Origin: Escherichia coli
GTDB taxonomy: Bacteria > Pseudomonadota > Gammaproteobacteria > Enterobacterales > Enterobacteriaceae
Assembly (NCBI RefSeq): GCF_030013595.1
Contig: NZ_CP122768.1
Length of the DNA: 64,000 nucleotides
Strand: one strand, 5' to 3'
In this document: in pieces, positions 43,651 to 61,956 of the stretch
Layout: the number at the start of each line of letters is the position of its first letter
Position numbering within the stretch: position 1 is the stretch's first letter
Translations under genes and position numbers: made by a program
The notes under the pieces: generated by a model
The model's database searches: none
Told to the model about the DNA's origin: nothing
What the model saw: only the letters and a program-made list of their open reading frames with translations

Positions 43651-45219
43651 TTAGCGTGCCGGCTGAGTAGTCGTGGAAGACTGCTCAAAGTGATAGCGAC
43701 CGGTTTTCAGGCTGCTTGGGCCGAGGCGTGCAAACTTGAACATTAAGAACAATTCTGCCACCAGGAACAGGGTATACAGGCCGCAAATCAGCACCATTGA
43801 GAAGATGAGATCGCCTGCGGTCAGTGACGAGTTCGCCACAGCTGTCGGCAGCACTTCACCGATAGCCCACGGTTGGCGGCCATATTCAGCCACAAACCAG
43901 CCCGCTTCTACAGCAATCCACGGCAGCGGAATACCGTACAGCGCGGCGCGCAGCAGCCATTTTTTCTCGCCAATGCGGTTGCGGATGACACTCCAGAAAG
44001 AGAGCGCGATGATTGCCAGCAGCAGGAAGCCACACGCCACCATGATACGGAACGCGAAGTACAGCGGCGCTACACGCGGAATGGAGTCTTTGGTTGCCTG
44101 TTGAATCTGCGCTTCAGTCGCATCAGCCACGTTTGGCGTATAGCGTTTCAGCAGCAGACCGTAACCGAGGTCTTTCTTCATGCTATTGAACTGGTCACGA
44201 ACCGCCTGGTCGGTAGAACCAGAACGCAGTTGCTCGAGCAGAGAGTACGCCTTCATCCCGTTACGAATGCGTTCTTCATGCTGCACCATCAGTTCTTTCA
44301 GGCCGATAACTGGAGTATCCACGGAACGCGTTGCAATGATACCCAGCGCGTAAGGGATCTGGATCGCAAATTTGTTCGTCTCCTCTTCCTGATCAGGAAT
44401 GCCGAACAGAGTAAAGGCAGCAGGCGCAGGTTGCGTTTCCCACTCGGCTTCAATAGCAGCCAGTTTGGTTTTCTGCACGTCGCCCATTTCGTAACCAGAT
44501 TCATCACCCAGAACAATAACAGACAGAACGGCAGCCATACCGAAGCTGGCAGCGATAGCAAAGGAGCGTTTAGCGAAGGCGAAGTCACGACCTTTCAGCA
44601 TATACCATGCGCTGATACCGAGGATGAACATCGCGCCAGTCACATAACCAGACGCTACAGTGTGAACGAATTTCACCTGAGCAACCGGGTTAAGCACCAG
44701 CTCGGAGAAGCTCACCATCTCCATACGCATAGTTTCAAAGTTGAAATCAGACGCGATTGGGTTTTGCATCCAGCCGTTCGCAACCAGAATCCACAGTGCG
44801 GACAGGTTTGAACCGAGCGCCACCAGCCAGGTGACACACATATGCTGAACTTTACCCAGACGATCCCAACCGAAGAAGAACAGACCTACAAAGGTGGATT
44901 CGAGGAAGAAGGCCATTAGACCTTCGATTGCCAGCGGCGCACCGAAGATATCCCCTACATAGTGGGAATAGTAAGACCAGTTAGTCCCGAACTGGAACTC
45001 CATGGTCAGACCGGTAGCCACACCCAGAGCGAAGTTGATACCAAACAACTTGCCCCAGAACTTGGTCATATCTTTATAAATCTGTTTGCCGGAAAGGACG
45101 TAGACCGTTTCCATAATGGCCAGCAGGAACGCCATACCGAGCGTCAGTGGCACAAAAAGGAAGTGGTACATCGCGGTCAAGGCAAACTGTAAGCGCGACA
45201 GTTCGACTATATCTAACAT
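43651..45219 (-). CDS. cydA: Cytochrome bd-I oxidase subunit I
   Basis: 522 aa from [15 protein letters not shown]. Confidence 0.95.
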
Positions 45220-45556
45220 CATGACTCCTTGCTCATCGCATGAAGACTCCGAGAGTGAACCCCGTTAGAAAGGGTCACACGCATGCCCCAATACAAAATT
45301 ATTTGCTCGCCTCTATCGTTGCCATTTCATCAAAAGAGGAAAAGACAATGATAAAAAAGTTACAAATATGTTAATGAATAAACCAAATTGATCCCGTAAT
45401 TATATTACGCCGCAAAATCCTTACAATAAACAGGTTTTTATTGAGCAAATTTGCATTTTTCGACAGTGATCAATTTATAGCGAAATTGTCACGATCTCAC
45501 CAATTTGATCTACGACAATTTATCGTGTTTTGCAGATTTTTTTCAAGAATTAAAAA

Positions 45557-45570
45557 TTGATTTATATCAA
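45557..45570 (-). promoter_or_regulatory. FNR-type site in cydA upstream regulatory region
   Basis: TTGATttatATCAA perfect FNR consensus. Confidence 0.45.
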
Positions 45571-46024
45571 AATCAACCAAATATGTTAATTATGTATAAA
45601 CCATAGATCATTGGTAATTTTATTGTTAATTTATTGTGAAATATTTATGCAACACAATTATTACAATGAAAAAGTATAGATAAAAAACCAGTGTTTTATT
45701 TAACAGAACCGCCCTATCCACTTTTTATAATACCAATTGATTAGAGTAGCCAATTTGTTGCTATTTTACATAACATATTTTTATCAAAGTTAATTGATTG
45801 TTGCCTTTATGAGCACCGGCCGTAAGCCCGTTATGTTATTGTTTCATTAGTAATAATCACTTAAATGTATCGATGAAACAGGTATGACTTAGCGGGAGTG
45901 ATTGTTTCTGAGTGAACAGAGACCACTTTCGCCTGATAAATGAAAAATGAGCGATTTTTGCAAGTTAGTTTTTCTATAGCCGAGTACGCTCAGCGCCTCG
46001 CTTGATTACAATGAGGTTGCTGCT

Positions 46025-46969
46025 ATGAGTCCTGATAATATCAGTTCTGCTGTCAATCGCTTCTCAGGTTGGCCATCTAATGATCCTCTAAAAACAGATA
46101 AAGAATCAATGACATCACCCATGACTGTGCAGGTAATAAAGATGATTGCCGCCATCCTTGACCCACATCGGATAGTCGTTGGAATCGATACACTTTATAC
46201 AACGCAGCGCGAAACATTTACCTCAGAGAGTCAACAGCTCATTGAATCAGCATTGCAAACACTTCATGTGATGAATTTAAATAACCTGGAAACAAATCTC
46301 GATGAGGAAGGTCACTATCTGGCTTTTGGATATAACGTTGACACTCCTGACAGAATAACCGTTTCTGCTTATAATGAAAAAAAGCCTGGCTGCTATGGCC
46401 AATGTCTTTTAATACAGGATGACGAAACAGACTTATTTAACCTGATAAAAGTTAAAATTTTTGAAGCCAGGCATAATTATGTCGCTCAATTGATGAGCGA
46501 TCCGGAATTTATGTTCAAATTTAGTTATAGCGCTCAACAAAATAGATTAGAACCTCATCTTCTGGTTCCCACTTATTTCCCTCTAAAAACAAACGAACCG
46601 GTTACGCAAGAGGATGTACTGTTACTTTATCGTTTCTTTAAAATGGATGGTGATTTTAATATATTAACATCAGATGAATACATGAGTATCATGACACCTC
46701 TAATGAAGTGTGAGCGTAGCATCCACGACCACAACAGGTATGTGACGGGCAAAGATCCCCTTCTTCTGGACTATCCTCCTTCTGGTAACCAGATATATTT
46801 CCATATTTTTCCTGACGAATCAGCAACACTAGTCCTTTATTTTTCAAACAATGACATTGAATGTTTCGTCTTTGAAAGAGATATTCCGAGCCAGTATCGC
46901 TTTTTCAAAATGTTTACCAATCTGGCACTGGTTATTGATCAGTTAACCGATGCCAATCAAATACTTTAA
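46025..46969 (+). CDS. Hypothetical protein, AT-rich accessory gene, no recognised domain
   Basis: 314-aa ORF in low-GC DNA where long random ORFs are unlikely; Ser/Pro/Asn-rich N-terminus. Confidence 0.6.
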   Translation: MSPDNISSAVNRFSGWPSNDPLKTDKESMTSPMTVQVIKMIAAILDPHRIVVGIDTLYTTQRETFTSESQQLIESALQTLHVMNLNNLETNLDEEGHYLAFGYNVDTPDRITVSAYNEKKPGCYGQCLLIQDDETDLFNLIKVKIFEARHNYVAQLMSDPEFMFKFSYSAQQNRLEPHLLVPTYFPLKTNEPVTQEDVLLLYRFFKMDGDFNILTSDEYMSIMTPLMKCERSIHDHNRYVTGKDPLLLDYPPSGNQIYFHIFPDESATLVLYFSNNDIECFVFERDIPSQYRFFKMFTNLALVIDQLTDANQIL

Positions 46970-47049
46970 TTTTTATATATTCCCTGTGGCAAATATTGCT
47001 AAACAATGCCCGGGGATTAATTTTTATTACTCACGGAAAGATTTAAATA

Positions 47050-47472
47050 ATGATCCCATCTCAAATCTCTTTCAACACCCTTCCTGTCAATGCAACATAC
47101 GCTTCAGAGACAACAGTTGACACACAAAAATTCTCTGACATCCTCTACTCAGCGGGGTGTTCCCTAAAGGATCTGGCTTATCTGAGCAGATGTCTGGCAT
47201 CAATACATCCGACTATCGCCAAAAACATTTATGAAACAGAAAATCTCAGCGATCAAAAATTACTACATATTGATTGCCGTAGTACAAATGAAATCAAGAT
47301 AAATATCTTTTTTGGTCAACAACGAGAAGGATTAATTGAAATTAGTTCTGACACAGTCATTTTTTCGATACTGTCTTCATTGATTGACTCCACCATTTCT
47401 AAATTTCAACACCAAAACCCCGTTAACGGTTCTGTAAATCCTGACCTATTGTATGAGGATTATACTGATTAA
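47050..47472 (+). CDS. Hypothetical protein, AT-rich accessory gene, no recognised domain
   Basis: 140-aa ORF 80 nt downstream of previous ORF, same strand, same low GC. Confidence 0.5.
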   Translation: MIPSQISFNTLPVNATYASETTVDTQKFSDILYSAGCSLKDLAYLSRCLASIHPTIAKNIYETENLSDQKLLHIDCRSTNEIKINIFFGQQREGLIEISSDTVIFSILSSLIDSTISKFQHQNPVNGSVNPDLLYEDYTD

Positions 47473-48019
47473 ATCCCTCCTGTCGCGAAAAATGGCCTGC
47501 GTTATTGCCAGACGTAATAAAACTTTTGATTAACGTTTCTCGTACTGGTAGCACCTTCATGTACTTTTCTTTTTTACGAAAAATCAAAAGAGCTAACAAA
47601 GGTCATAATTCGCATGAATCATTAATTATTTGTTATTTTCAACATTATTTTTACATTAAGCAGAGATGAATTGCAGTGAAATTCGACTTAATTTTTATGA
47701 AATGCATTTACTCATGGCTAAAGCCACGTCACAAAAATGCAAATTAGAAGTTGATCACAATTATCTCAATACATCAAATCAAGTTAATTTTAAAAATTTA
47801 ACATTCATGACACTAGTTGACATAACACACTGAATTAAAATGAGAATTTGGAAACACACTTTAAACAATCATTTCCCGAAAGACATTTTGAAAATAGATC
47901 AATTGCAACATTACGGTCAGATAAAGACACTCCTGTGATATTAAACCTGTGCCGTTATGAACGGCCATAAATACGACGTGTGTAACTTATTTTACTCTCT
48001 GTCTTACAAAGGATTACCC

Positions 48020-48469
48020 ATGAAGAAAGCAACACTTGTGATTGGCGTTATTGGCGCGGACTGCCATGCAGTAGGCAATAAAGTTCTGGACCGCGTTTTT
48101 AGCAACCATGGCTTCAGAGTCATTAATCTGGGCGTAATGGTCAGCCAGGACGAATATATTGATGCTGCCATTGAAACTGGCGCTGACGCGATTGTCGTCT
48201 CCTCTATCTATGGGCATGGCGATATCGACTGTCTGGGCATGCGCGAACGCTGCATCGAGCGTGGACTGGGTGACATCCTGCTCTATGTGGGCGGTAACCT
48301 GGTGGTCGGAAAACATGACTTCGCTGACGTGGAAACCAAATTTAAAGAGATGGGATTTGATCGCGTCTTTGCCCCAAGTCATGACTTAGAAGATGTTTGT
48401 CAGCTGATGGCCCACGATATCAACCAACGTCATGACGTTGATACTCGCATTCTTGAAGAGGCAATCTGA
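48020..48469 (+). CDS. Glutamate mutase sigma (S) subunit, B12-binding (methylaspartate mutase S chain)
   Basis: 149 aa from [21 protein letters not shown] (B12-binding DxHxxG motif). Confidence 0.85.
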
Positions 48470-49857
48470 TGCAAATCGTCTCTGTCGATATTGGATCGAC
48501 GTGGACCAAAGCAGCCCTCTTCGCCCGGGAGGGGGACGCGTTAACGTTGGTTAACCACGTACTGACCCCAACCACCACCCATCATCTGGCGAAGGGGTTT
48601 TTCTCCAGCCTGAACCTGGTGTTAAACGTAGATAATGCCCTCCCCCTGTTTAACAGCGGTGAGGTTACATTGAAGTATTCCTCCTCTGCCAAAGGTGGGC
48701 TGGCGGTTGCCGCAATGGGATTGGTGCCTTCTATCACCCTGGAAACCGCGAAAGTAACCGCTCACTCTGCGGGGGCTAAAATTGCGCAATATTACTCCTA
48801 CAAGCTGAACCGCCGTGATATCCAGGCACTGGAAGAAACGCAGCCCGATATTCTCTTGTTCACCGGCGGCACCGACGGCGGAGAAGAAAGCTACGGCCTG
48901 AATAACGCCCGTGTGCTGGCAGAATCCAAACTCGACTGCGCCATTATTTATGCCGGAAACCGGGATATTCAGGACGAAGTGCAGGAGATCCTAGGGCATA
49001 AAGACCTGACCATCGTCGACAACGTTCTGCCCGATCTTGACCATCCGAACCCTTTAGCCGCACGCCAGGCTATCTGCGACATATTCCTTAAACGCATCGT
49101 TAAAGGGAAAGGGCTGGATGTCGTTGTTGATAAAACAGGCGAAGAACCAATGCCGACACCATGGACGGTCTTTGAACTGGTTAAGGCAATCAGTAACGTC
49201 GATCACAGCTGGAAAGAGTTCATGCTGATCGACATGGGCGGCGCAACCACCGATGTCTATTCCGCCTGTGCCAACACGCTCTCGCCCGACACCGTTTTAC
49301 ACGGCGTACCGGAACCCTTCGTGAAACGGACGGTGGAAGGCGATCTGGGAATGCGCGTCTCGGCAATGGTGGTTGGTGAAAGTGCGAAAGAGTTAGTCAA
49401 TGTGAATTTTGCTCAGCAACCCGCACAGCTGGACGCTTTTTATCATTACCTCCGTCATCTAGTCGCTCATCCCGACTACTTACCCGCGAATGCAGAAGAA
49501 AAATATTTCGATACCGTCCTGGCCGGACTGTGTGTGGGTTATGCCACCGAAAGACATGCGGGCACCAAAAAAGAGGTCTGCACCTGCGTCGGCAATGTCG
49601 ATTTACAGATGGGACGTGACCTGACAACCGTGCGTAAAGTCGTCGGATCCGGCGGATGGCTCTCGCGTGCCAGTCAGTTCGATATGCATCACTGGTTGAA
49701 ATACCGCGAGTTAAACGACGACGGTAAACGCATTCTCTTACCGACCGAATTTGAATATTACCGCGATTCCCGGGGGCTATTACCACTGCTGGCAAACGTC
49801 GCCAGAGTCGATCCTCTGGCCGCCGCGCGCACCAGTATTCAATGCTTAACCCTATAA
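48469..49857 (+). CDS. Glutamate mutase accessory protein L (MutL/GlmL)
   Basis: 462 aa; sits between S and E subunits as in clostridial clusters. Confidence 0.75.
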   Translation: MQIVSVDIGSTWTKAALFAREGDALTLVNHVLTPTTTHHLAKGFFSSLNLVLNVDNALPLFNSGEVTLKYSSSAKGGLAVAAMGLVPSITLETAKVTAHSAGAKIAQYYSYKLNRRDIQALEETQPDILLFTGGTDGGEESYGLNNARVLAESKLDCAIIYAGNRDIQDEVQEILGHKDLTIVDNVLPDLDHPNPLAARQAICDIFLKRIVKGKGLDVVVDKTGEEPMPTPWTVFELVKAISNVDHSWKEFMLIDMGGATTDVYSACANTLSPDTVLHGVPEPFVKRTVEGDLGMRVSAMVVGESAKELVNVNFAQQPAQLDAFYHYLRHLVAHPDYLPANAEEKYFDTVLAGLCVGYATERHAGTKKEVCTCVGNVDLQMGRDLTTVRKVVGSGGWLSRASQFDMHHWLKYRELNDDGKRILLPTEFEYYRDSRGLLPLLANVARVDPLAAARTSIQCLTL

Positions 49858-49875
49858 CAATTAAGGCTGCAATCA

Positions 49876-51321
49876 ATGGAACTTCGAAATAAGAAATTAA
49901 CCCATGACGAATTCATGACCGAGCGGCAACAGGTACTGAAAACCTGGGAAACCGGCAAGGATGTTGAAAACTTTGAAGATGGCGTTAAATACCAACAAAC
50001 CATTCCTGAGCATAAACGCTTCTCTCTTGCGCTGTTGAAAGCAGACAAGGAAGGTAAAACCCTTAGCCAACCGCGCGCAGGTGTGGCGCTGATGGACGAA
50101 CACATCGAACTACTGAAAACACTACAAGAAGAGTGCGATCTGCTGCCGAGCACTATCGATGCATATACCCGTCTGAATCGGTACGAAGAAGCGGCTGTAG
50201 GGATTAAAAAATCCATCGAAGCCGGAACCTCTAAACTGAACGGTTTGCCGGTAGTTAACCATGGCGTCGCAGCTTGCCGTCGCCTCACCGAAACCCTGCA
50301 AAAACCGCTACAGATCCGCCACGGCACGCCAGATGCGCGTCTGCTGGCTGAAATCTCAATGGCCAGCGGCTTTACCAGTTATGAAGGCGGTGGCATTTCC
50401 TACAACATTCCGTATGCCAAACGCGTAACGCTGGAAAAATCGATCCGCGACTGGCAGTACTGCGACCGTTTAATGGGGATGTATGAAGAACACGGGATCC
50501 GCATCAACCGCGAACCGTTTGGCCCACTAACGGGTACGCTGATCCCGCCGTTTATCTCGCACTCTATCGCGATAATCGAAGGCTTGCTGGCGCTGGAACA
50601 GGGTGTGAAATCTATCACCGTTGGTTATGGACAGGTCGGCAGCCTGACGCAGGATGTTGCGGCGATCCAGTCTCTGCGTGAACTTGCACACGAATATTTT
50701 CAGAGCTATGGCTATACCGACTATGAATTAAGTACCGTGTTTCACCAGTGGATGGGCGGCTTTCCGGAAGACGAATCGAAAGCGTTCGCTATTATCTCCT
50801 GGGGCGCAGCCGTCGCGGGGATGTCTGGTGCCACCAAAGTCATCACCAAAAGTCCGCACGAAGCCTGGGGCATCCCGACTGCCGCTGCCAACATTCAGGG
50901 GCTGAAAGCCTCCCGCCAGATGCTCAACATGGTCAACGAGCAGAAATTCCCGCCGTGCCCTGCGGTTGAACTGGAAATTGAACTGATTAAGAGCGAGGTT
51001 CGCGCGGTACTGAATAAAGTGTTCGAACTGGGTAATGGTGATATTGCGCGCGGTACGGTGCTGGCATTTGAAGCGGGCGTACTGGATGTGCCGTTTGCGC
51101 CAGCCGCCTGCAACGCGGGCAAAATTCTTCCGGTCCGTGACAACACCGGCGCGATACGCGTACTGGAAGCCGGAGCCGTTCCATTGCCAAAAGATATTCT
51201 CGACCTCCACCACGATTACGTTGCTGAACGCGCACGCTTTGAAGGACGCCAACCGACATTCCAGATGGTTGTAGATGACATCAATGCTGTATCCCACAGT
51301 AAATTAATAGGAAGACCATAA
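49876..51321 (+). CDS. Glutamate mutase epsilon (E) subunit (methylaspartate mutase E chain)
   Basis: 481 aa TIM-barrel mutase. Confidence 0.85.
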   Translation: MELRNKKLTHDEFMTERQQVLKTWETGKDVENFEDGVKYQQTIPEHKRFSLALLKADKEGKTLSQPRAGVALMDEHIELLKTLQEECDLLPSTIDAYTRLNRYEEAAVGIKKSIEAGTSKLNGLPVVNHGVAACRRLTETLQKPLQIRHGTPDARLLAEISMASGFTSYEGGGISYNIPYAKRVTLEKSIRDWQYCDRLMGMYEEHGIRINREPFGPLTGTLIPPFISHSIAIIEGLLALEQGVKSITVGYGQVGSLTQDVAAIQSLRELAHEYFQSYGYTDYELSTVFHQWMGGFPEDESKAFAIISWGAAVAGMSGATKVITKSPHEAWGIPTAAANIQGLKASRQMLNMVNEQKFPPCPAVELEIELIKSEVRAVLNKVFELGNGDIARGTVLAFEAGVLDVPFAPAACNAGKILPVRDNTGAIRVLEAGAVPLPKDILDLHHDYVAERARFEGRQPTFQMVVDDINAVSHSKLIGRP

Positions 51322-52562
51322 TGAAAATAAAACAGGCTCTGTTCACCGCTGGCTACTCCTCATTCTATTTCGATGACCAGCAGGCGATAAAAAACGGAGC
51401 GGGTCATGACGGCTTTTTTTATACCGGGGAGCCAGTAACACAGGGGTTTAACGCCGTACGTCAGGCCGGGGAGTGCGTATCGGTACAGTTGATTCTGGAA
51501 AACGGCGCGGTCGCCGTAGGTGACTGTGCTGCCGTACAGTATTCCGGGGCAGGTGGTCGCGATCCACTGTTCCTCGCAGAGCACTTTATTCCGTTCCTCA
51601 ACGACCATATCAAGCCATTACTGGTAGGCCGCGATGTGGATGCTTTCCTGCCGAATGCCCGTTTCTTCGACAAATTGCGTATTGACGGCAACTTGCTACA
51701 TACCGCCGTGCGCTACGGATTATCACAGGCGCTGCTTGATGCTACCGCGCTGGCAACCGGCCGTCTGAAAACTGAAGTAGTTTGCGATGAATGGCAGTTG
51801 CCACGCGTGGCGGAATCCATTCCATTATTTGGTCAGAGCGGTGACGATCGATATATCGCCGTCGATAAGATGATCCTTAAGGGCATCGACGTGCTGCCCC
51901 ATGCACTGATTAATAACGTCGAAGAGAAACTAGGCTTTAAAGGTGAAAAACTGCGCGAATATGTCCGCTGGCTGTCGGATCGTATTCTGAGCAAGCGCAC
52001 CAGCGCACGCTACCACCCTACCCTGCACATCGATGTATACGGCACTATCGGTCTGATCTTCGATATGGATCCGCTTCGCTGTGCGCAATACATCGCCAGC
52101 CTGGAAAAAGAAGCGCAAGGCCTGCCGCTCTACATTGAAGGGCCGGTCGATGCCGGTAACAAGCCCGATCAAATTCGCCTGCTGACCGCGATTACCAAAG
52201 AGCTGACGCGCCTCGGTTCCGGCGTGAAAATTGTGGCCGATGAATGGTGTAACACCTACCAGGATATTGTTGATTTTACTGATGCCGCCAGTTGCCACAT
52301 GGTGCAAATCAAAACCCCGGATCTGGGCAGTATTCACAACATCGTCGATGCGGTTCTTTACTGCAACAGCCACAGCATGGAAGCGTACCAGGGCGGCACC
52401 TGCAATGAAACTGATGTCAGTGCCTGCACCTGTGTCCACGTCGCCCTTGCCGCTCGCCCTATGCGTATGCTGGTAAAGCCAGGGATGGGCTTTGACGAAG
52501 GCCTCGATATCGTCTTCAACGAAATGAATCGTACTATCGCGCTGTTGCAGGCTAAGGATTAA
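51321..52562 (+). CDS. 3-Methylaspartate ammonia-lyase
   Basis: 413 aa enolase-superfamily protein, MKIKQALFTAGYSSFYFDDQQAIKNGAGHDGF. Confidence 0.85.
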   Translation: MKIKQALFTAGYSSFYFDDQQAIKNGAGHDGFFYTGEPVTQGFNAVRQAGECVSVQLILENGAVAVGDCAAVQYSGAGGRDPLFLAEHFIPFLNDHIKPLLVGRDVDAFLPNARFFDKLRIDGNLLHTAVRYGLSQALLDATALATGRLKTEVVCDEWQLPRVAESIPLFGQSGDDRYIAVDKMILKGIDVLPHALINNVEEKLGFKGEKLREYVRWLSDRILSKRTSARYHPTLHIDVYGTIGLIFDMDPLRCAQYIASLEKEAQGLPLYIEGPVDAGNKPDQIRLLTAITKELTRLGSGVKIVADEWCNTYQDIVDFTDAASCHMVQIKTPDLGSIHNIVDAVLYCNSHSMEAYQGGTCNETDVSACTCVHVALAARPMRMLVKPGMGFDEGLDIVFNEMNRTIALLQAKD

Positions 52563-52565
52563 CAA

Positions 52566-53936
52566 ATGGCTCGTTCTTTTAAAGTCTTATCGCCAACGGC
52601 AATCCTCGGGTATGGATTCCCGGAAGAGAGCTTCCGTAAAGCGATGGCAGAATCGCCCGATCTGATCGCCGTTGATGCAGGCTCTTCCGATCCTGGCCCC
52701 CACTACCTCGGGGCGGGCAAACCGTTTACCGATCGCGCAGGGGTCAAGCGCGATCTGCGCTATATGATCACCGCAGGCGTGCAAAATAATATACCGGTGG
52801 TGATCGGAACGGCTGGCGGTTCTGGTGCCGCACCACACCTGGAGTGGTGCCGAGAAATAATTCATGAGATTGCCCGGGAAGAGCACCTCTCGTTCTCGAT
52901 GGCGTTGATCCCGGCAGACGTTGACAAAGCCATCGTCCACCAGGCGCTGGATAACGGCAAAATCACGGCGCTGGATTTTGTCCCGCCGTTAACCCACGAC
53001 GCGATTGACGAAAGTACGTATATCGTCGCGCAAATGGGCATCGAACCCTTCCAGCAGGCGCTGAAAGAAGGCGCGCAAGTGGTGCTGGGCGGGCGCGCTT
53101 ACGACCCGGCCTGCTTTGCTGCGCTACCGATCATGCAAGGCTTTGATGAAGGTCTGGCGCTGCATTGTGGGAAAATCCTTGAATGCGCGGCAATCGCCGC
53201 AACGCCCGGCTCAGGCTCTGACTGGGCGATGGGCATCATTGATGACAACGGCTTTACGCTGAAGACATTTAATCCGAAGCGTAAATTTACCGAAACGTCA
53301 GCGGCTGCACACACACTGTATGAGAAATCCGATCCCTACTTCCTGCCAGGACCTGGCGGCGTGTTGAACCTGAAAGACTGCACATTTAAAGCGGTCAATG
53401 ACGGCGAAGTGTACGTCAGCGGTTCTAAGCATGAAGAAACGCCGTATGCCCTGAAACTGGAAGGTGCGCGACGAGTGGGCTTCCGCTGTCTGACCATCGC
53501 AGGAACGCGCGACCCGATCATGATCGCCGGGATCGATAAAATCATCGATGAAGTCAAAACCAGCGTTTCGCGTAACCTGTCGCTCGACGATGACAGCATT
53601 CACATCAATTTCCACCTGTACGGCAAAAACGGGGTGATGGGCGACCATGAACCGATGCAAACTGCCGGGCATGAGCTGGGGATTGTCCTTGATGTAGTTG
53701 CACCGACCCAGGAAATTGCCAATAGCGTTTGCTCGCTGGTGCGCTCTACCATGCTGCACTACGGCTATGAAAACCGCATCGCTACCGCAGGCAATCTGGC
53801 GTTCCCGTTCTCCCCTTCTGATATCCAGGGCGGGCCGGTATACGAATTTTCCATATATCACCTGATTGAAGCCAACGACGCTCTGCGTTTTGATTTCCAT
53901 ATTGAACAGGTGACGCCAGAAGGAGTTCAGGCATGA
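52566..53936 (+). CDS. DUF1446 (AtuA-like) family protein
   Basis: 456 aa; family assignment from recalled sequence features. Confidence 0.6.
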   Translation: MARSFKVLSPTAILGYGFPEESFRKAMAESPDLIAVDAGSSDPGPHYLGAGKPFTDRAGVKRDLRYMITAGVQNNIPVVIGTAGGSGAAPHLEWCREIIHEIAREEHLSFSMALIPADVDKAIVHQALDNGKITALDFVPPLTHDAIDESTYIVAQMGIEPFQQALKEGAQVVLGGRAYDPACFAALPIMQGFDEGLALHCGKILECAAIAATPGSGSDWAMGIIDDNGFTLKTFNPKRKFTETSAAAHTLYEKSDPYFLPGPGGVLNLKDCTFKAVNDGEVYVSGSKHEETPYALKLEGARRVGFRCLTIAGTRDPIMIAGIDKIIDEVKTSVSRNLSLDDDSIHINFHLYGKNGVMGDHEPMQTAGHELGIVLDVVAPTQEIANSVCSLVRSTMLHYGYENRIATAGNLAFPFSPSDIQGGPVYEFSIYHLIEANDALRFDFHIEQVTPEGVQA

Positions 53937-54250
53937 AACAGTCAATTGTCTCACTGGCGCAAGTCATTCGTTCGAAAAATGCCGGACCTTACGAACTGGT
54001 TTTAGATATTTTATTTAAAACCAAAGAAAACTATGAGCGTGTCAAATCATCAGGGCAATTAACCCCAGAACTGATCGCGCGCTTATATCATGTTGAACCT
54101 GACTTTATTCATCGTATTGTCTGGTTTGATCCTTCTAACGCAGTAAAAATCGTCATGCCACGAGATATTATCTCCGGGAATGTAGGTGACAATGATGTCT
54201 ATGGTGCACAGCAACATGCACCTTTATTAAATATGAGTTTCGATTTGTAA
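53933..54250 (+). CDS. DUF4387 family protein, usual partner of DUF1446
   Basis: 105 aa, start overlaps upstream stop. Confidence 0.55.
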   Translation: MKQSIVSLAQVIRSKNAGPYELVLDILFKTKENYERVKSSGQLTPELIARLYHVEPDFIHRIVWFDPSNAVKIVMPRDIISGNVGDNDVYGAQQHAPLLNMSFDL

Positions 54251-54398
54251 AAATCCGAATACTTTTAGCCAACTGACATCCCGTCACTTATTGCAGTTCA
54301 ACACTTCAGCTATTTGTAAGGTTGTAATAGCAGGTAGATGCCTGAATCTCTATTCAGGCATCTACTTCTCCTGATTCTGATTTATCGCCGCGCACCTG

Positions 54399-55691
54399 AT
54401 GGAGGAAAAAATGAAGAAAATAAGTTTAACCACGATGATTCTTTTGGCGCTGGTACTTGGAATGATTATCGGCGTAGTGCTCAATAACACTGCTTCACCG
54501 GAAACCGCAAAACTCTATGCGCAAGAAATATCGATATTCACGACGATTTTCTTACGACTGATAAAAATGATTATCGCTCCGTTAGTGGTCTCTACCCTGG
54601 TGGTAGGTATAGCTAAAATGGGCGATGCCAAAGCCCTTGGTCGTATTTTTTCTAAAACACTCTTTTTATTTATTTGCGCCTCATTGCTGTCAATTGCCTT
54701 AGGCTTGATAACAGTAAATTTCTTCATGCCAGGCACAGGAATTAATTTTGTTGCACACGGAGCCGAAACCACCGGAGTGGTCGCGTCAGAACCCTTTACG
54801 CTAAAAGTATTTATTTCGCATGCTTTCCCCACCAGCATTGTCGATGCCATGGCGCACAATGAAATTTTGCAAATCGTGGTGTTCTCAATTTTCCTCGGCT
54901 GTAGCCTGACGGCGATTGGCGAGAAAGCCAGCGCCATCGTTCACGCCTTAGATTCGCTGGCACATGCCATGTTAAAGCTCACTGGCTACGTCATGCTCTT
55001 CGCTCCCCTGACCGTATTCGCTGCTATTTCAGCATTGATTGCTGAACGAGGACTGGCAGTTATGGTGAGCGCCGGGATCTTTATGGGTGAATTTTATTTC
55101 ACCATGTTATTACTTTGGGTGCTGCTTATCGGTCTGGCCATCGTTTATGTTGGCCCCTGCATCAGACGCCTGACCCGCGCCCTTTCGGAACCCGCCCTGC
55201 TGGCATTTACCACATCCAGTTCTGAAGCGGCTTTTCCAGGAACGCTTGAAAAACTGGAGCAATTTGGCGTTTCCCCCAAAATTGCCAGCTTTGTCTTACC
55301 CATTGGCTACTCATTTAATCTCGTTGGATCAATGGCCTACTGCTCCTTCGCCACAGTTTTCATCGCCCAGGCCTGCAATATCCATTTATCCATCGGTGAG
55401 CAAATCACCATGCTGTTGATCCTGATGTTGACCTCGAAAGGAATGGCTGGCGTACCACGCGCCTCAATGGTGGTTATCGCCGCCACGCTCAACCAGTTCA
55501 ATATTCCGGAAGCGGGGCTGATCTTGCTGATGGGCGTTGATCCGTTCCTTGATATGGGGCGTTCCGCGACAAACGTCATGAGCAACGCAATGGGCGCTGC
55601 GATGGTGAGTCGGTGGGAAGGCGAACATTTCGGCGAGGGCTGTCGGGGTAAAGCATTAAAACCCAATGAATCGAACGTTGCTCTGCCCTGA
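54399..55691 (+). CDS. Dicarboxylate/amino acid:cation symporter (DAACS; GltP/DctA family)
   Basis: 430 aa, polytopic, SDF-family motif TSKGMAGVP; start may be 54411. Confidence 0.8.
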   Translation: MEEKMKKISLTTMILLALVLGMIIGVVLNNTASPETAKLYAQEISIFTTIFLRLIKMIIAPLVVSTLVVGIAKMGDAKALGRIFSKTLFLFICASLLSIALGLITVNFFMPGTGINFVAHGAETTGVVASEPFTLKVFISHAFPTSIVDAMAHNEILQIVVFSIFLGCSLTAIGEKASAIVHALDSLAHAMLKLTGYVMLFAPLTVFAAISALIAERGLAVMVSAGIFMGEFYFTMLLLWVLLIGLAIVYVGPCIRRLTRALSEPALLAFTTSSSEAAFPGTLEKLEQFGVSPKIASFVLPIGYSFNLVGSMAYCSFATVFIAQACNIHLSIGEQITMLLILMLTSKGMAGVPRASMVVIAATLNQFNIPEAGLILLMGVDPFLDMGRSATNVMSNAMGAAMVSRWEGEHFGEGCRGKALKPNESNVALP

Positions 55692-55798
55692 GGGGGATCT
55701 TAAGCAATCAGAAGCCAATGACTACGCATTTTTATAAGCCGGATCATGAAGTTAGACGGCAATTAAGTAACACTAACGTTTAAGGTGAAAAGTGAAAT

Positions 55799-57451
55799 AT
55801 GTCAAAACCATTTATCTGGCAAGAACCGTTTCTACAAAATAAAGACGGTACAGAATATACATTAATTAGCGATCAGCATATTACAGTAACGGAATTAGAC
55901 GGCGAAGAAGTGATAAAAATCGCTCCTGAAGCATTAACGCTGCTTGCCCGGCAGGCATTTTATGAAGCCTCTTTTTTCTTACGTTCCGCTCATTTGCAAC
56001 AGGTCGCCAGCATTCTTAACGATCCGCAGGCCAGTAGTAATGATAAATACGTTGCGTTGCAGTTATTACGTAATGCTGAAGTCTCAGCAAAAGGGGTATT
56101 ACCCAACTGTCAGGATACCGGCACCGCAACTATTGTTGCCAGTAAAGGGCAACAGATATGGACGGGAGGTAACGACGCTGAAGCCTTAAGCAAAGGCATT
56201 TACAGTACTTTCCAGGAAAATAATCTGCGCTTTTCACAAAATGCGCCGCTGGATATGTATACCGAAGTCAATACGCAAACCAATCTCCCGGCGCAGATTG
56301 ATATCAGCGCTGTCGCTGGTAATGAGTACCATTTTCTCTGTGTTAATAAAGGGGGCGGCTCCGCCAATAAAGCCGCACTTTATCAGGAAACCAAATCCTT
56401 ATTGCAACCAGAAAAACTGACCGCATTTTTAATCGAAAAAATGAAATCGCTGGGCACCGCTGCCTGCCCGCCTTACCACATCGCCTTTGTCGTCGGAGGG
56501 CTTTCAGCCGATCAAACCTTAAAAGTTGCCAAGCTGGCCTCAACGAAATATTACGACAATTTGCCCACCAGCGGAAACGAGCAAGGACAAGCATTCCGTG
56601 ATATTGAGCTGGAAAAAGTGTTGCTCGAGGCCAGTCAGCAATTTGGTATTGGTGCGCAATTTGGAGGTAAATATTTCGCTCATGATATTCGCGTCATTCG
56701 TCTGCCGCGTCACGGTGGCTCCTGCCCGATAGCTATGGCGCTCTCCTGTTCTGCCGATCGCAATATCAAAGCAAAAATTAACAAGCACGGTATCTGGCTG
56801 GAAAAACTCGAACACAATCCGGGGCAATATATTCCAGCCTCACTGCGGGAAGAAAATCACGCGCAACATGTACAGCTGGATCTAAACCGTCCGTTGCGTG
56901 ACGTGATGCAGGATCTCGCCAGATTACCGGTAGGTACCCGCGTGTCGTTAAGTGGTCCCATCGTAGTGGCGCGCGATATCGCCCACGCCAAAATAAAAGC
57001 GCGGCTGGATAGCGGCGAACCGATGCCGGATTACCTGAAGCATCATATTGTCTATTACGCTGGCCCGGCGAAAACACCGGAGAACATGGCCTGCGGTTCA
57101 CTAGGTCCAACCACGGGCGGTCGAATGGACGGTTATGTCGATACCTTCCAGGCTGCTGGCGGCAGTCTGGTAATGTTATCGAAAGGTAACCGCAGCCAGC
57201 AGGTCACCGATGCCTGTCACAAACATGGCGGCTTCAATCTGGGAAGTATTGGCGGTGCAGCTGCGTTACTGGCGCAAGAATATGTCAAAAGTCTGCGTTG
57301 CCTGGAATACCCGGAGCTGGGTATGGAAGCGGTGTGGATGATGGAAGTGGAAAATCTGCCCGCATTCATCCTGGTAGATGATAAAGGCAATAATTTCTTT
57401 AGTCAGTTTGAGCAGCAACACCGCTGCGCCAGTTGCCCTGCGGGACATTAA
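55799..57451 (+). CDS. fumD: Class I fumarate hydratase paralog; likely mesaconase (FumD-like)
   Basis: 550 aa, Fe-S class I fumarase family; embedded in methylaspartate cluster. Confidence 0.8.
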
Positions 57452-57460
57452 GGAAAATGA

Positions 57461-58063
57461 ATGGAAGCGCGAATTTCAACTGAACGGCATGTGCAGCGCC
57501 AGCAGAAATTGAAGGAACAGGTCGATACGCGCATCGCGGCGGCGATAGAGAAAAAAGGGATTTTGATTGTTTTCACCGGCAATGGCAAAGGGAAATCCAC
57601 TGCCGCGTTTGGTACTGTGACGCGCGCGGTGGGTCATGGCAAAACGGTGGGGGTTGCGCAGTACATCAAGGGGCAATGGGACAACGGCGAATACAACCTT
57701 CTCCAGCCGCTGGGGGTTGAGTTTCATATTATGGGAACCGGTTTTACCTGGGAGACACAGAACCGGCAAGCGGATATCGACGCGGCGAAAGAGGTCTGGT
57801 CGGAAAGCAAACGGATGCTGGCTGACAAGCGTTACGACTTAGTGGTGCTTGATGAGCTGACCTATATGCTGGCTTACCATTATCTGGATACCGAAGAAGT
57901 GATCGCTTCTCTGCAAAACCGCCCGGCACAACAAAGTGTCATTGTCACCGGACGCGGTTGCCACAGTCAGATATTAAAAATGGCGGATACGGTCAGCGAA
58001 ATCCGCCCCGTCAAACATGCTTTTGATAACGGCATTCAGGCCCAGCCGGGTATCGACTGGTAA
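57461..58063 (+). CDS. Cob(I)alamin adenosyltransferase (CobA/BtuR family)
   Basis: 200 aa, P-loop FTGNGKGKSTAAFG. Confidence 0.85.
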   Translation: MEARISTERHVQRQQKLKEQVDTRIAAAIEKKGILIVFTGNGKGKSTAAFGTVTRAVGHGKTVGVAQYIKGQWDNGEYNLLQPLGVEFHIMGTGFTWETQNRQADIDAAKEVWSESKRMLADKRYDLVVLDELTYMLAYHYLDTEEVIASLQNRPAQQSVIVTGRGCHSQILKMADTVSEIRPVKHAFDNGIQAQPGIDW

Positions 58064-58065
58064 TA

Positions 58066-58096
58066 ACTGCGCCTGGCATCCCGCCAGGCGCAGGTT
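58066..58096. terminator. Bidirectional terminator between adenosyltransferase and LysR genes
   Basis: CTGCGCCTGGC-atcc-CGCCAGGCGCAG hairpin with flanking A/T runs. Confidence 0.5.
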
Positions 58097-59002
58097 TTAC
58101 ATCTCCTGCGGTACAACCGATTTCGCCAGCAACCATTCACGAAATTGCTGCAAGTGCGGTGAGTCAGACTTCTCTTCCTGCCACGTCATAATAAAACGAT
58201 TACCGGTACGAATAGGCACATCACAGGGGATCACCATATCGCCACTATCCAAATCATGTTGAATAGCGAACCGTGGTAACAGCGCCACGCCGAGATTCGA
58301 GCGCACGGCGGCAATCAGCATTGAAAGCAAATCGAAACGTGGTCCGTTGTTGACCAGCGGACTGCTAACGCCAGATAAGGCAAACCACTCTTCCCAGCCA
58401 GTAATACGGGTACTTTGATGCAGAAGTGGTAACTCTGTAAGCAGTTCTGCCACTGACAGTTTTTGATCGGACATTGCAAGCAAACTGCCGCTGCATACCG
58501 GCAAAATCTCCTCATAAAAGAGATATTCTACTTCCGCCCAGGGCGCGCAAAAATTTTCGCGCATAATGACAGCATCGTACTCCCGATTAAGAAAATCGCC
58601 GTTATTAGCTAAAGAGTGAATATTAACAATAATATCGGGATGTAACTTTGTGAATTCATGTAAATTTGGGATTAACCAGTGAGTACTAAACGTAGGATTA
58701 ACGGCAAGTTCAATAACCTGAACCGTAGGCTGCCAGGTCATAATGGTATTGGTATCGCGTTCCAGCTTATTTAATGTTTCTTTTACTATCCCCAGGTAAT
58801 ACTTCCCTGCATCATTAAGAAAAATGCGTTTTTTAGAGTGTGAAAATAACGGAGTATGTAAAAATTCCTCCAGCGCACTTACTTGTCTGAATACAGCACT
58901 TTGGGTTAACGCTAACTCCTCTGCCGCTCTGGTATAGCTTTCATGACGTGCGACGACCTCAAAAGTCACCAGCTGCTCCGTTTTAGGTATTTTTCCTCGC
59001 AT
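58097..59002 (-). CDS. LysR-family transcriptional regulator
   Basis: 301 aa from MRGKIPKTEQL; HTH TQSAVFRQVSALE. Confidence 0.8.
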   Translation of the reverse strand: MRGKIPKTEQLVTFEVVARHESYTRAAEELALTQSAVFRQVSALEEFLHTPLFSHSKKRIFLNDAGKYYLGIVKETLNKLERDTNTIMTWQPTVQVIELAVNPTFSTHWLIPNLHEFTKLHPDIIVNIHSLANNGDFLNREYDAVIMRENFCAPWAEVEYLFYEEILPVCSGSLLAMSDQKLSVAELLTELPLLHQSTRITGWEEWFALSGVSSPLVNNGPRFDLLSMLIAAVRSNLGVALLPRFAIQHDLDSGDMVIPCDVPIRTGNRFIMTWQEEKSDSPHLQQFREWLLAKSVVPQEM

Positions 59003-59213
59003 AATGCCGTCCGTGAAAAAATAACAATTCAAAAATTATTTTATAAAAAACAGTAGCACTAATGAATATCATAATTCAAATAAACAAACCAGTCAGCTAT
59101 ATGTCTAACCAGGAAAATAAAGTGACAATAATCCTAAAACAGGAATTTCACCTCAGTTATCCGCATGCAATACTTTAAAGCTATTATTGCAAGAATATTA
59201 TTCATATACATGA

Positions 59214-59341
59214 ATATACTCTAAATAAGTCAAGTTGCAGGAAGGGAACAAATAATGAATTTCCAGAAGCTTACATAAGTAAGTGACCTGGGTGAGCGAA
59301 CATCGATGCAGCACATGCAACTTGAATTATGACAAGTATAC
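59214..59341. repeat. ERIC-like element, divergent copy
   Basis: Shares ...GCTTACATAAGTAAGTGAC(C)TGGGTGAGCGAAC...GCAGCACATGCAACTTGAA with ERIC at 13414-13542. Confidence 0.65.
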
Positions 59342-59591
59342 AATGATAAATTTATATACCCTATGTTATATATTATCTATGTCCGGTTAAATTGAATGAG
59401 TCATGGCCTTAAAAGACTTCACAAAAGATAATTCCTCTTTAACAATAAGCCAGATTTACCACTTGTAAAACTTGCTATCGCCACATACACTACGCGCGTT
59501 TTCTTTCCCTTTTGCTGGCTGCTGACCGGAAAGACAAAATTACCCTCGCAATACAGGGGGTTGTTTAACGTCTATATTTCAGGACAGCGTT

Positions 59592-60989
59592 ATGCATCAT
59601 CTTTCAAGGCTTGATAAAGCCTTTCTGCGCAAAGGGATCCAACTTTCCCGCGCCAACAATATTGTTTCATTATCTCGTCCATCAGGTGCCAGTGCCCGCG
59701 TACTGCTGCCGGACGAACTGCCGCTGGAAGAAAAAGCAGTAACACAACTGCTTGATTTTGCAGAAGTGAAGCTACCAGACCACCCAGGTTATGTGCGCCA
59801 GACGTGCGCGACGCCAGATTTTCATCCCGGCAATGGAGTCCCCGTTGGCGCGGTGGTGGCCTCAACGCCGGATTTAGTCATTCCCGCCGCCATCGGCACC
59901 GATATTTCTTGTGGCATGCGGCTGCTGACGACCGGATTAACACTTGAGCAAGCCGAAGCGCATAAAGACGTCATCGCTCAGCGGTTAACGCAAGTGCTAC
60001 TGCAAAATGAGCGCGATGTTCCGTTATCCGCACAGGCGTTCACCGCGCTTTTTGATGGCGGACCGGCAGATTGCGTGTCGACCTTGCCATCAGCAGGTCT
60101 CTGGACACGCACGAATATCCCCCGAATGGTACAAGAGATTGACCGCTGCATTGGGCTTAACGAGCATAACAGTCATTCGCGTTATGCCCCACCCGCCCTG
60201 CTGGCAACGGACCGCGCATTACTCCGCGATCCTTGTCTGGGTACGCCGGGTTCAGGTAATCATTTTATTGAACTTCAGGTCGTTGATAGCGTGGTTGATC
60301 GCCATGTAGCCTGGCAACAAGGGCTGAAAACAGGCGATATTGTGGTGATGATCCACAGTGGATCGCGAGATGTTGGCTTTTACGTCGGAAGACGCTGGAT
60401 GGATCGCGCCCGTGCTGAATGGCCCACCGGACATAAACATCCACAAAGCGGGTTATATGGTCTGGCAGGCGGACTGGCGGAGGAATATCTACAAGCGATA
60501 GGAATGGCGGCGCGTTACGCGTGGTTAAATCGCGTCACAATTGCCGAAATGGTGCGCGTATGTCTCGCCAATCTCTTTCATCAGGACAATTCGCATCTGG
60601 TGGTGGATGTGCCGCATAACATCATCCTTCGCGAGCATGAAATGAATATTCATCGCAAAGGTGCAACACCGGCACGAGTGGGCGATCTGGCATTAATCCC
60701 CGGTTCAATGGGCGATTATTCGTGGCTTGCAGTCGGTTGCGGCAACCCGGAGTGGCTGTGGTCATGCAGTCACGGAGCAGGACGCAGCCAGCGTCGACAG
60801 GCCATGCGCTCAAGCGCGACTGAAGAGTCAACGCTGCCGTGGCAATGCGTCACATTGCGTGAAGAACGACGTCTTGAAGAAGCGCCAGCGGCTTATAAAG
60901 ATATTGGTCCGGTTATCGAAGCCCAACAAGAAGCCGGATTAATTCAGCCAGCGGTCAGATTTCGACCGTGGTTAACGTTTAAGGCATAA
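59592..60989 (+). CDS. RtcB-family RNA ligase homolog (orphan)
   Basis: 465 aa; motifs GTDISCGMRL, GSGNHFIEL, HSGSRDVG, SHGAGRS. Confidence 0.75.
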   Translation: MHHLSRLDKAFLRKGIQLSRANNIVSLSRPSGASARVLLPDELPLEEKAVTQLLDFAEVKLPDHPGYVRQTCATPDFHPGNGVPVGAVVASTPDLVIPAAIGTDISCGMRLLTTGLTLEQAEAHKDVIAQRLTQVLLQNERDVPLSAQAFTALFDGGPADCVSTLPSAGLWTRTNIPRMVQEIDRCIGLNEHNSHSRYAPPALLATDRALLRDPCLGTPGSGNHFIELQVVDSVVDRHVAWQQGLKTGDIVVMIHSGSRDVGFYVGRRWMDRARAEWPTGHKHPQSGLYGLAGGLAEEYLQAIGMAARYAWLNRVTIAEMVRVCLANLFHQDNSHLVVDVPHNIILREHEMNIHRKGATPARVGDLALIPGSMGDYSWLAVGCGNPEWLWSCSHGAGRSQRRQAMRSSATEESTLPWQCVTLREERRLEEAPAAYKDIGPVIEAQQEAGLIQPAVRFRPWLTFKA

Positions 60990-61086
60990 AAAAGGCCATC
61001 ATACGATGGCCAACCATGTCGAAACCGACAGCCCTTCGCCATTCCTGTAGAGGGAAGCGGCGAGGGCTATTTCTTATTACAGATAT
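60987..61086 (-). ncRNA. sdhX: sucD 3'UTR with intrinsic terminator; SdhX (RybD) sRNA locus
   Basis: Minus-strand GGCCAUCGUAUGAUGGCC hairpin plus U6 directly downstream of sucD stop. Confidence 0.55.
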
Positions 61087-61956
61087 TTATTTCAGAACAG
61101 TTTTCAGTGCTTCACCGATATCCGCCAGGCTGCGAACGGTTTTCACGCCTGCGGCTTCCAGAGCAGCGAATTTCTCATCCGCAGTCCCTTTCCCACCGGC
61201 AATGATCGCACCCGCGTGGCCCATACGTTTGCCTTTCGGCGCAGTCACACCAGCGATGTAACCCACAACTGGCTTGGTAACATGCTCTTTGATGTACGCA
61301 GCCGCTTCTTCTTCAGCGCTACCGCCGATCTCACCGATCATCACGATCGCTTCGGTCTGCGGATCTTTTTCGAACATTTCGAGGATGTCGATAAAGTTAG
61401 AGCCAGGGATCGGGTCACCGCCGATACCAACACAGGTCGACTGACCGAAACCGTAATCCGTGGTCTGTTTCACCGCTTCATAGGTCAGTGTACCGGAACG
61501 GGAAACGATACCCACTTTACCCGGTTTGTGAATGTGACCAGGCTGGATACCGATTTTGCATTCACCCGGAGTGATAACGCCTGGGCAGTTCGGGCCGATC
61601 ATGCGAACGCCCGCTTCATCCAGTTTCACCTTCACGGTCAGCATATCCAGCGTCGGGATGCCTTCAGTGATGGTGATAATCAGTTTGATGCCTGCATCAA
61701 TAGCTTCCAGAATGGAGTCTTTGCAGAACGGTGCTGGTACGTAGATAACAGAAGCGGTAGCGCCAGTAGCAGCAACAGCTTCACGCACGGTATTGAACAC
61801 CGGCAGGCCGAGGTGGGTAGTACCGCCTTTACCTGGGGTTACGCCGCCAACCATTTTGGTGCCGTATGCAATGGCCTGTTCAGAGTGGAAAGTCCCCTGG
61901 CTACCGGTAAAGCCCTGGCAGATAACCTTGGTGTTTTTATCAATTAAAATGGACAT
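61087..61956 (-). CDS. sucD: Succinyl-CoA synthetase alpha subunit
   Basis: 289 aa. Confidence 0.95.

Follow-up and report, generated by a model that had tools for sequence, protein, structure and literature searches.

The two adjacent genes at 52566 to 54250 of the window, the 64-kb stretch of Escherichia coli DNA analysed here, very probably encode CmlA and CmlB, which together form a heteromeric (S)-citramalate lyase and supply the last step of the methylaspartate pathway specified by the neighbouring genes. Our analysis supports this through orthology to a crystallised enzyme, through the coupling of the two genes and through a conserved genomic context. The function of CmlAB has already been established by others, with structures released in October 2025 and a preprint in 2026; the citramalate-lyase reading is thus right yet no longer new, and it is the database annotation that lags behind. 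In RefSeq, UniRef, Pfam and NCBIfam, the genes are still named "AtuA family" or "DUF4387", and some database records mislabel cmlA as methylaspartate ammonia-lyase.

The open reading frames, the RefSeq annotation of E. coli locus L001 (99.9% identical) and NCBIfam matches gave the gene order glmS-glmL-glmE-mal-cmlA-cmlB-symporter-fumD-cobO (Table 1). The order given in a preliminary description of this DNA was therefore correct, with cobO as an additional gene after fumD, and the two reading frames that it had assigned to DUF1446 and DUF4387 lie exactly where it had placed them. Both family assignments were borne out by the Pfam profiles, as CmlA matched AtuA (PF07287, formerly DUF1446) with an E value of 1.1e-19 over residues 63 to 394, and CmlB matched DUF4387 (PF14330) with an E value of 2.9e-39 over residues 6 to 101. 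No family covering CmlA or CmlB was found in NCBIfam or PADLOC. Three bases separate the mal stop codon from the cmlA start, the TGA stop codon of cmlA overlaps the ATG of cmlB within the ATGA at 53933 to 53936, and Shine-Dalgarno-like sequences precede both cml genes. The spacer between cmlB and the symporter gene (54251 to 54398) is predicted to fold at -38.5 kcal/mol (z score of -3.85), and the stem-loop within it may terminate transcription in part, which could divide the cluster into two transcription units, or may stabilise the upstream mRNA. Since an Rfam search over 45200 to 61100 gave no RNA family at E ≤ 1, no known riboswitch precedes glmS.

Table 1. Genes and RNA hairpins of the methylaspartate island, in window coordinates.
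Feature	Position	Strand	Basis or remark
glmS, methylaspartate (glutamate) mutase subunit S	48020..48469	+	RefSeq annotation of 99.9% identical locus L001; longest ORF from 47957
glmL, mutase accessory protein	48469..49857	+	ORF list, RefSeq annotation of L001
glmE, methylaspartate mutase subunit E	49876..51321	+	ORF list, RefSeq annotation of L001
mal, methylaspartate ammonia-lyase	51321..52562	+	ORF list, RefSeq annotation of L001
cmlA, very probable citramalate lyase large subunit, AtuA/DUF1446 family, 456 aa	52566..53936	+	
cmlB, very probable citramalate lyase small subunit, DUF4387, 105 aa	53933..54250	+	
Stem-loop, perfect 15-bp, in cmlB-symporter spacer; interrupted U-rich stretch 3'	54333..54366	+	Folding, sequence
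Dicarboxylate/amino acid:cation symporter (GltP/DctA-like)	54399..55691	+	NCBIfam DctA and GltP below cut-offs; RefSeq start 54411
fumD, class I fumarase acting as mesaconase	55799..57451	+	NCBIfam NF011921, 1286 bits, above cut-off
cobO, cob(I)yrinic acid a,c-diamide adenosyltransferase; adenosyl-B12 source for mutase	57461..58063	+	NCBIfam TIGR00708
GC-rich terminator-like hairpin, operon end	58067..58093	+	11-pair stem with 9 GC pairs in terminator scan
LysR-family regulator, convergent with operon	58097..59032	-	RefSeq annotation of L001, NCBIfam; RefSeq start 59002

The window is part of the E. coli chromosome, and the island lies between cydAB-ybgE/tol-pal and sucABCD. From 47.9 to 58.1 kb it is 99.9% identical to E. 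coli strain HCP5S3_I2, and 1,135 of 5,426 complete E. coli genomes, roughly one in five, carry it. At the left edge of the island, two ORFs of 314 and 140 aa (46025 to 46969 and 47050 to 47472) occupy a stretch of 36% GC; both are hypothetical proteins in RefSeq, with no NCBIfam or PADLOC match, and the gap of about 550 bp that follows before glmS holds no known RNA family. Beside the island, the gene at 59592 to 60989 scored 204 bits against an NCBIfam cut-off of 407 for the RtcB family, over its C-terminal half only, and by this match it is classed as a divergent RtcB paralogue. Farther to the left, collinearity with the closest genome is lost from 1 to about 8170, where that genome carries uvrB, the bio operon and ybhB; in other E. 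coli genomes the counterpart of most of this stretch, from about 795 onward, is the integrase/bet/exo end of a lambdoid prophage, and here it abuts ybhC. Within the operon, mal codon 369 (window 52425) encodes Cys where the closest relative has Arg, a change that is probably neutral because the column is variable (R, K, Q, I, L and others) in 72 homologues.

Both proteins aligned over their full length, without a single gap and at equal lengths (456 and 105 aa), with the chains of PDB entries 9ERQ and 9EVF, which were deposited as "Citramalate lyase, subunit A (cmlA)" and "subunit B (cmlB)". CmlA was 91.4% identical to chain A (E = 6.6e-289, 39 substitutions) and CmlB 84.6% identical to chain B (E = 5.2e-57, 16 substitutions). 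Judged by these alignments, the window pair is the orthologue of the crystallised CmlAB, and apart from the two entries no close structural relatives were found. The entries represent an AMPPNP-citramalate and an ADP-pyruvate complex. The exact chain A sequence carries the name Klebsiella michiganensis in the protein collection, so the crystallised enzyme is connected by name only with the Raoultella planticola enzyme of the preprint described below. The likeness to CmlAB of Klebsiella and Raoultella covers the gene families as well as the enterobacterial glm-mal-cmlAB-symporter-fumD-cobO cluster (seen at L002, L003 and other loci), while the difference that stands out among the substitutions is a tryptophan in place of cysteine at residue 220 of the window CmlA.

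Function in vivo has been reported for cmlAB of R. planticola, which turned mesaconate-derived citramalate into pyruvate and acetate (bioRxiv 10.64898/2026.01.16.699985). In that study, growth of an acetyl-CoA auxotroph on mesaconate needed the cmlAB plasmid and was lost on curing, FumA made (S)-citramalate from mesaconate, and label reached acetyl-CoA in the auxotroph. Cml had been chosen specifically as a CoA-independent alternative and its product was described as free acetate; the evolved strains raised acetyl-CoA synthetase, and ATP was never mentioned (bioRxiv 10.64898/2026.01.16.699985). The preprint's cmlAB is linked through Berg's laboratory to the 2015 account of the E. coli cluster by Kronen and Berg (PMC4682846), according to which the cluster makes citramalate and has a DUF1446 gene downstream of mal. 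That account characterised FumD of E. coli O157:H7 as a mesaconase/fumarase and placed the island in about 90% of O157:H7 strains (PMC4682846). It also reported that citramalate is no substrate of E. coli citrate lyase, that there was likewise no citramalate cleavage in E. coli under isocitrate lyase and methylisocitrate lyase conditions, that extracts of E. coli ATCC 700728 had no citramalate lyase activity in an assay run without nucleotide, and that no conditions were found in which this strain expressed the cluster; the fate of citramalate was stated to be unclear (PMC4682846). Our literature search found no primary paper describing CmlAB in the library that it covered, so the activity rests on the names and titles of the deposits together with one preprint in which the enzyme is used as a tool. 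The same search returned nothing on DUF4387, only Kronen and Berg as relevant to DUF1446, nothing useful that links AtuA with methylaspartate, and mostly chloramphenicol-resistance papers for the names CmlA and CmlB.

The pathway that these assignments would give is short. Glutamate would be converted to 3-methylaspartate by GlmSE, with GlmL and CobO, 3-methylaspartate to mesaconate by Mal, and mesaconate to (S)-citramalate by FumD. CmlAB would then split (S)-citramalate into pyruvate and acetate without CoA, the product being that given in the preprint and carried over to the window proteins by orthology.

The genomic context was surveyed with relatives of CmlA, scanned at one genome per species. 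At least 578 matches were confirmed, and the best 80, with 57 to 92% CmlA identity, were analysed by searching their loci with the window proteins and the E. coli K-12 CitC, CitD, CitE, CitF, CitX and CitG proteins using tblastn. These 80 loci span Proteobacteria, Riflebacteria, Aminicenantes, Firmicutes, Spirochaetes and others, with Enterobacterales, Rhodocyclales, Clostridia and Desulfobacterales among the groups represented. In 79 of them cmlB lies directly downstream of cmlA, the exception being a locus whose contig ends 140 bp past cmlA. Of the 73 loci whose DNA extends 1400 bp or more ahead of cmlA, 66 have a mal homologue directly upstream; mutase genes were found in 56 to 64 of the 80, and a class I fumarase, either fused or two-subunit, in 36 of the 58 with enough downstream DNA. 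At two loci lacking mal (L034 and L059), a two-subunit class I fumarase follows straight after cmlB, and fumarase with cmlAB is here a minimal pair for the use of mesaconate or citramalate. The subfamily is unusually well conserved: among 24 of its sequences, with identity down to 60%, 149 columns were invariant. The window proteins keep every invariant column of the two subfamily alignments, and residue 220 of CmlA, which is Cys, Ser or Ala in all 80 loci, is Trp.

Five loci (L023, L056, L067, L073 and L074) carry cmlAB-like pairs, at 57 to 67% identity, with no mal, mutase or fumarase gene within 10 kb. Their neighbours are unrelated, for example HrpA and MalQ, and L073 has an acyl-CoA carboxyltransferase.

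Genes for known citramalate-cleaving systems were sought in the same DNA. With the six K-12 Cit proteins, tblastn of the 64-kb window gave nothing below an E value of 0.1, so the cluster is without a classical lyase, and CitD, CitE or CitF was found within 10 kb of cmlA at none of the 80 loci, save for one 26% CitE-like match 10 kb off at L073. A hidden CitDEF-type lyase in the window or near the homologues was thereby rejected. The classical citramalate lyase of Clostridium tetanomorphum and its relatives (EC 4.1.3.22, CitDEF-like) catalyses the same net reaction as CmlAB and occupies the same position in the methylaspartate pathway, and in Clostridia it is encoded beside glm, mal and mesaconase genes (PMC4682846). 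However, it has no sequence relationship to CmlAB, which has no acyl carrier subunit, CitE, CitF or prosthetic-group enzymes and, according to the deposits, binds an adenine nucleotide. (S)-citramalyl-CoA lyase of the Ccl/CLYBL type (EC 4.1.3.25), together with a CoA-transferase, splits this carbon skeleton too, giving pyruvate and a C2 unit, but this enzyme needs prior CoA activation, yields acetyl-CoA and belongs to a CitE/HpcH-like family to which no similarity was found in the window. Genes for this lyase and CoA-transferase are absent from most enterobacteria (PMC4682846).

In the preliminary description, the lack of a lyase-like gene in the cluster had been taken to make the DUF1446/DUF4387 pair a candidate for the missing citramalate step, and a survey of its co-occurrence with mutase and methylaspartase had been proposed. 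The tblastn search upheld the first point, while the orthology to 9ERQ and 9EVF, the in vivo result of the preprint and the neighbourhood survey all speak for the second. Its other suggestion, an alternative route through CoA esters, is unsupported, as the preprint uses Cml as a CoA-independent step.

AtuA of acyclic terpene utilisation in Pseudomonas and Thauera shares PF07287 with CmlA. Tentatively, it converts 3-hydroxy-3-isohexenylglutaryl-CoA to a 3-oxoacyl-CoA and acetate, a cleavage of a tertiary hydroxy acid (PMC4847356), and since this is a reaction of the same kind, the acetate-release chemistry appears general to the family. Unlike the split CmlAB, AtuA consists of one chain, about 600 aa long and 615 aa in Thauera; its gene accompanies those for geranyl-CoA carboxylase, and its substrate is a CoA ester. 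No carboxylase gene is found among the neighbours of the window pair, and its two chains (456 and 105 aa), its glutamate-pathway neighbours and its identity of 29 to 47% to the fused relatives indicate that it is not AtuA sensu stricto.

These fused relatives emerged from a library-wide search with CmlB, as single chains of about 610 to 735 aa in which a CmlA-like part (29 to 47% identity) is followed by a CmlB-like C-terminus (34 to 45%). Their existence shows independently that CmlA and CmlB work as one unit and that the two together correspond to the fused AtuA-type proteins. The fused proteins share the core invariant residues of CmlA and lack its PGSGSD-C loop. The CmlA residues invariant in split and fused proteins alike are D37-x-G-S-x-D42-x-G-P, R57, D63, G84-G-x-G, H91, Q156, E160, G176-R-x-x-D-P, H200-x-G-K-x-x-E-C207, H249-x-x-Y-E253, K297, E299, R393, H398 and N410, and the motifs DxGSxDxGP, GGxG..H, GRxYDP, HxGKxxEC and HxLYE run through the CmlA family as a whole. 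On the basis of this conservation, the common residues may form the site at which nucleotide and substrate bind. CmlB has invariant polar motifs of its own (RSKNxGPYEL and SGxxGDxDVYGAQQHAPLL), which suggest that it contributes to the active site and is not a passive partner. The active site would then be built from the invariant CmlA residues, probably together with the CmlB motifs, and a retro-aldol reaction would break (S)-citramalate between C2 and C3, freeing the acetate unit from the tertiary hydroxy acid.

One protein from the representative library (P0355, 1096 aa) joins CmlA-like and CmlB-like parts to a third, long segment at its C-terminus. On visual inspection this segment looks like a family III CoA-transferase, a hint that CoA esters may be substrates or products of some members of the family.

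The nucleotide in both deposited complexes may act as co-substrate or activator, or have a structural role. According to the depositors, CmlAB binds AMPPNP or ADP along with citramalate or pyruvate, and the pairing of AMPPNP with substrate and of ADP with product fits an ATP-coupled enzyme, in which CmlAB phosphorylates the C4 carboxylate of citramalate and cleaves the acyl phosphate to pyruvate and acetyl phosphate. The acetate unit would here be activated by phosphate, in the role that the thioester plays in classical lyases, and the ATP would be regained through acetate kinase. Although such coupling is chemically attractive, the preprint gives free acetate as the product, with acetyl-CoA synthetase raised in the evolved strains and ATP unmentioned, and the fold similarities are far below the level that shows homology. 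We therefore consider ATP coupling unlikely, if worth keeping in view, and retain the cleavage to pyruvate and free acetate as the working reaction of CmlAB. If ATP coupling were true, it would add a third type of chemistry for breaking this C-C bond to those that use acyl-carrier-protein and CoA thioesters, enterobacteria could recover ATP through acetate kinase, and the acyl-phosphate logic would extend to the large AtuA/DUF4387 family of bacteria and fungi.

Among the 11 positions at which the window differs from the closest complete genome in 24 kb, one changes CmlA at codon 220 (window 53223 to 53225), which reads TGG (Trp) here and TGT (Cys) in the 99.9% identical relative. The residue comes right after the invariant D219, in the PGSGSD-C loop that is specific to the split CmlA subfamily, and in the 80 loci it is Cys in 72, Ser in five and Ala in three, never a large residue. 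A 55-mer with TGG was present in none of the 5,426 complete E. coli genomes, compared with 1,114 for its TGT version. The exact W220 protein was found on 61 contigs of public assemblies (for example EED0146434.1); a sequencing error was therefore rejected, and W220 is an inherited, persisting allele. Judged from this distribution, C220W is real and lineage specific. As all 80 relatives have Cys, Ser or Ala at this position, W220 CmlA may be impaired, and the substitution could weaken or inactivate the lyase in this strain, so that the cluster would end at citramalate or decay. The persistence of the protein on the 61 contigs speaks against such a loss, as does the finding that the other invariant residues and the reading frames across the operon are all intact, and we judge it rather improbable. 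That the pair instead acts on mesaconate, methylaspartate or CoA esters, or supports the mutase, while citramalate is cleaved by an enzyme encoded elsewhere, is very improbable: the missing functional names in RefSeq, UniRef and NCBIfam, and the mislabelled records, reflect only older uncertainty, and the homologous pairs outside mal clusters (the five loci above) are outweighed by the substrate and product complexes deposited under the citramalate lyase name, the citramalate-cleaving function seen in vivo in the preprint, and the lack of citramalate cleavage under the E. coli citrate, isocitrate and methylisocitrate lyase conditions (PMC4682846).

For annotation, the citramalate lyase function can be assigned, with good confidence, throughout the tightly conserved subfamily, that is, to proteins of at least about 57% identity that are always followed by cmlB and usually have mal upstream. 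What remains of interest is the role of the nucleotide, the extension to the wider AtuA/DUF4387 family and the W220 allele. CmlAB already serves as a compact part in synthetic pathways. In E. coli, the pair closes the glutamate pathway to pyruvate and acetate with neither coenzyme A nor an acyl carrier protein, and this bears on the possible use of glutamate by gut pathogens.
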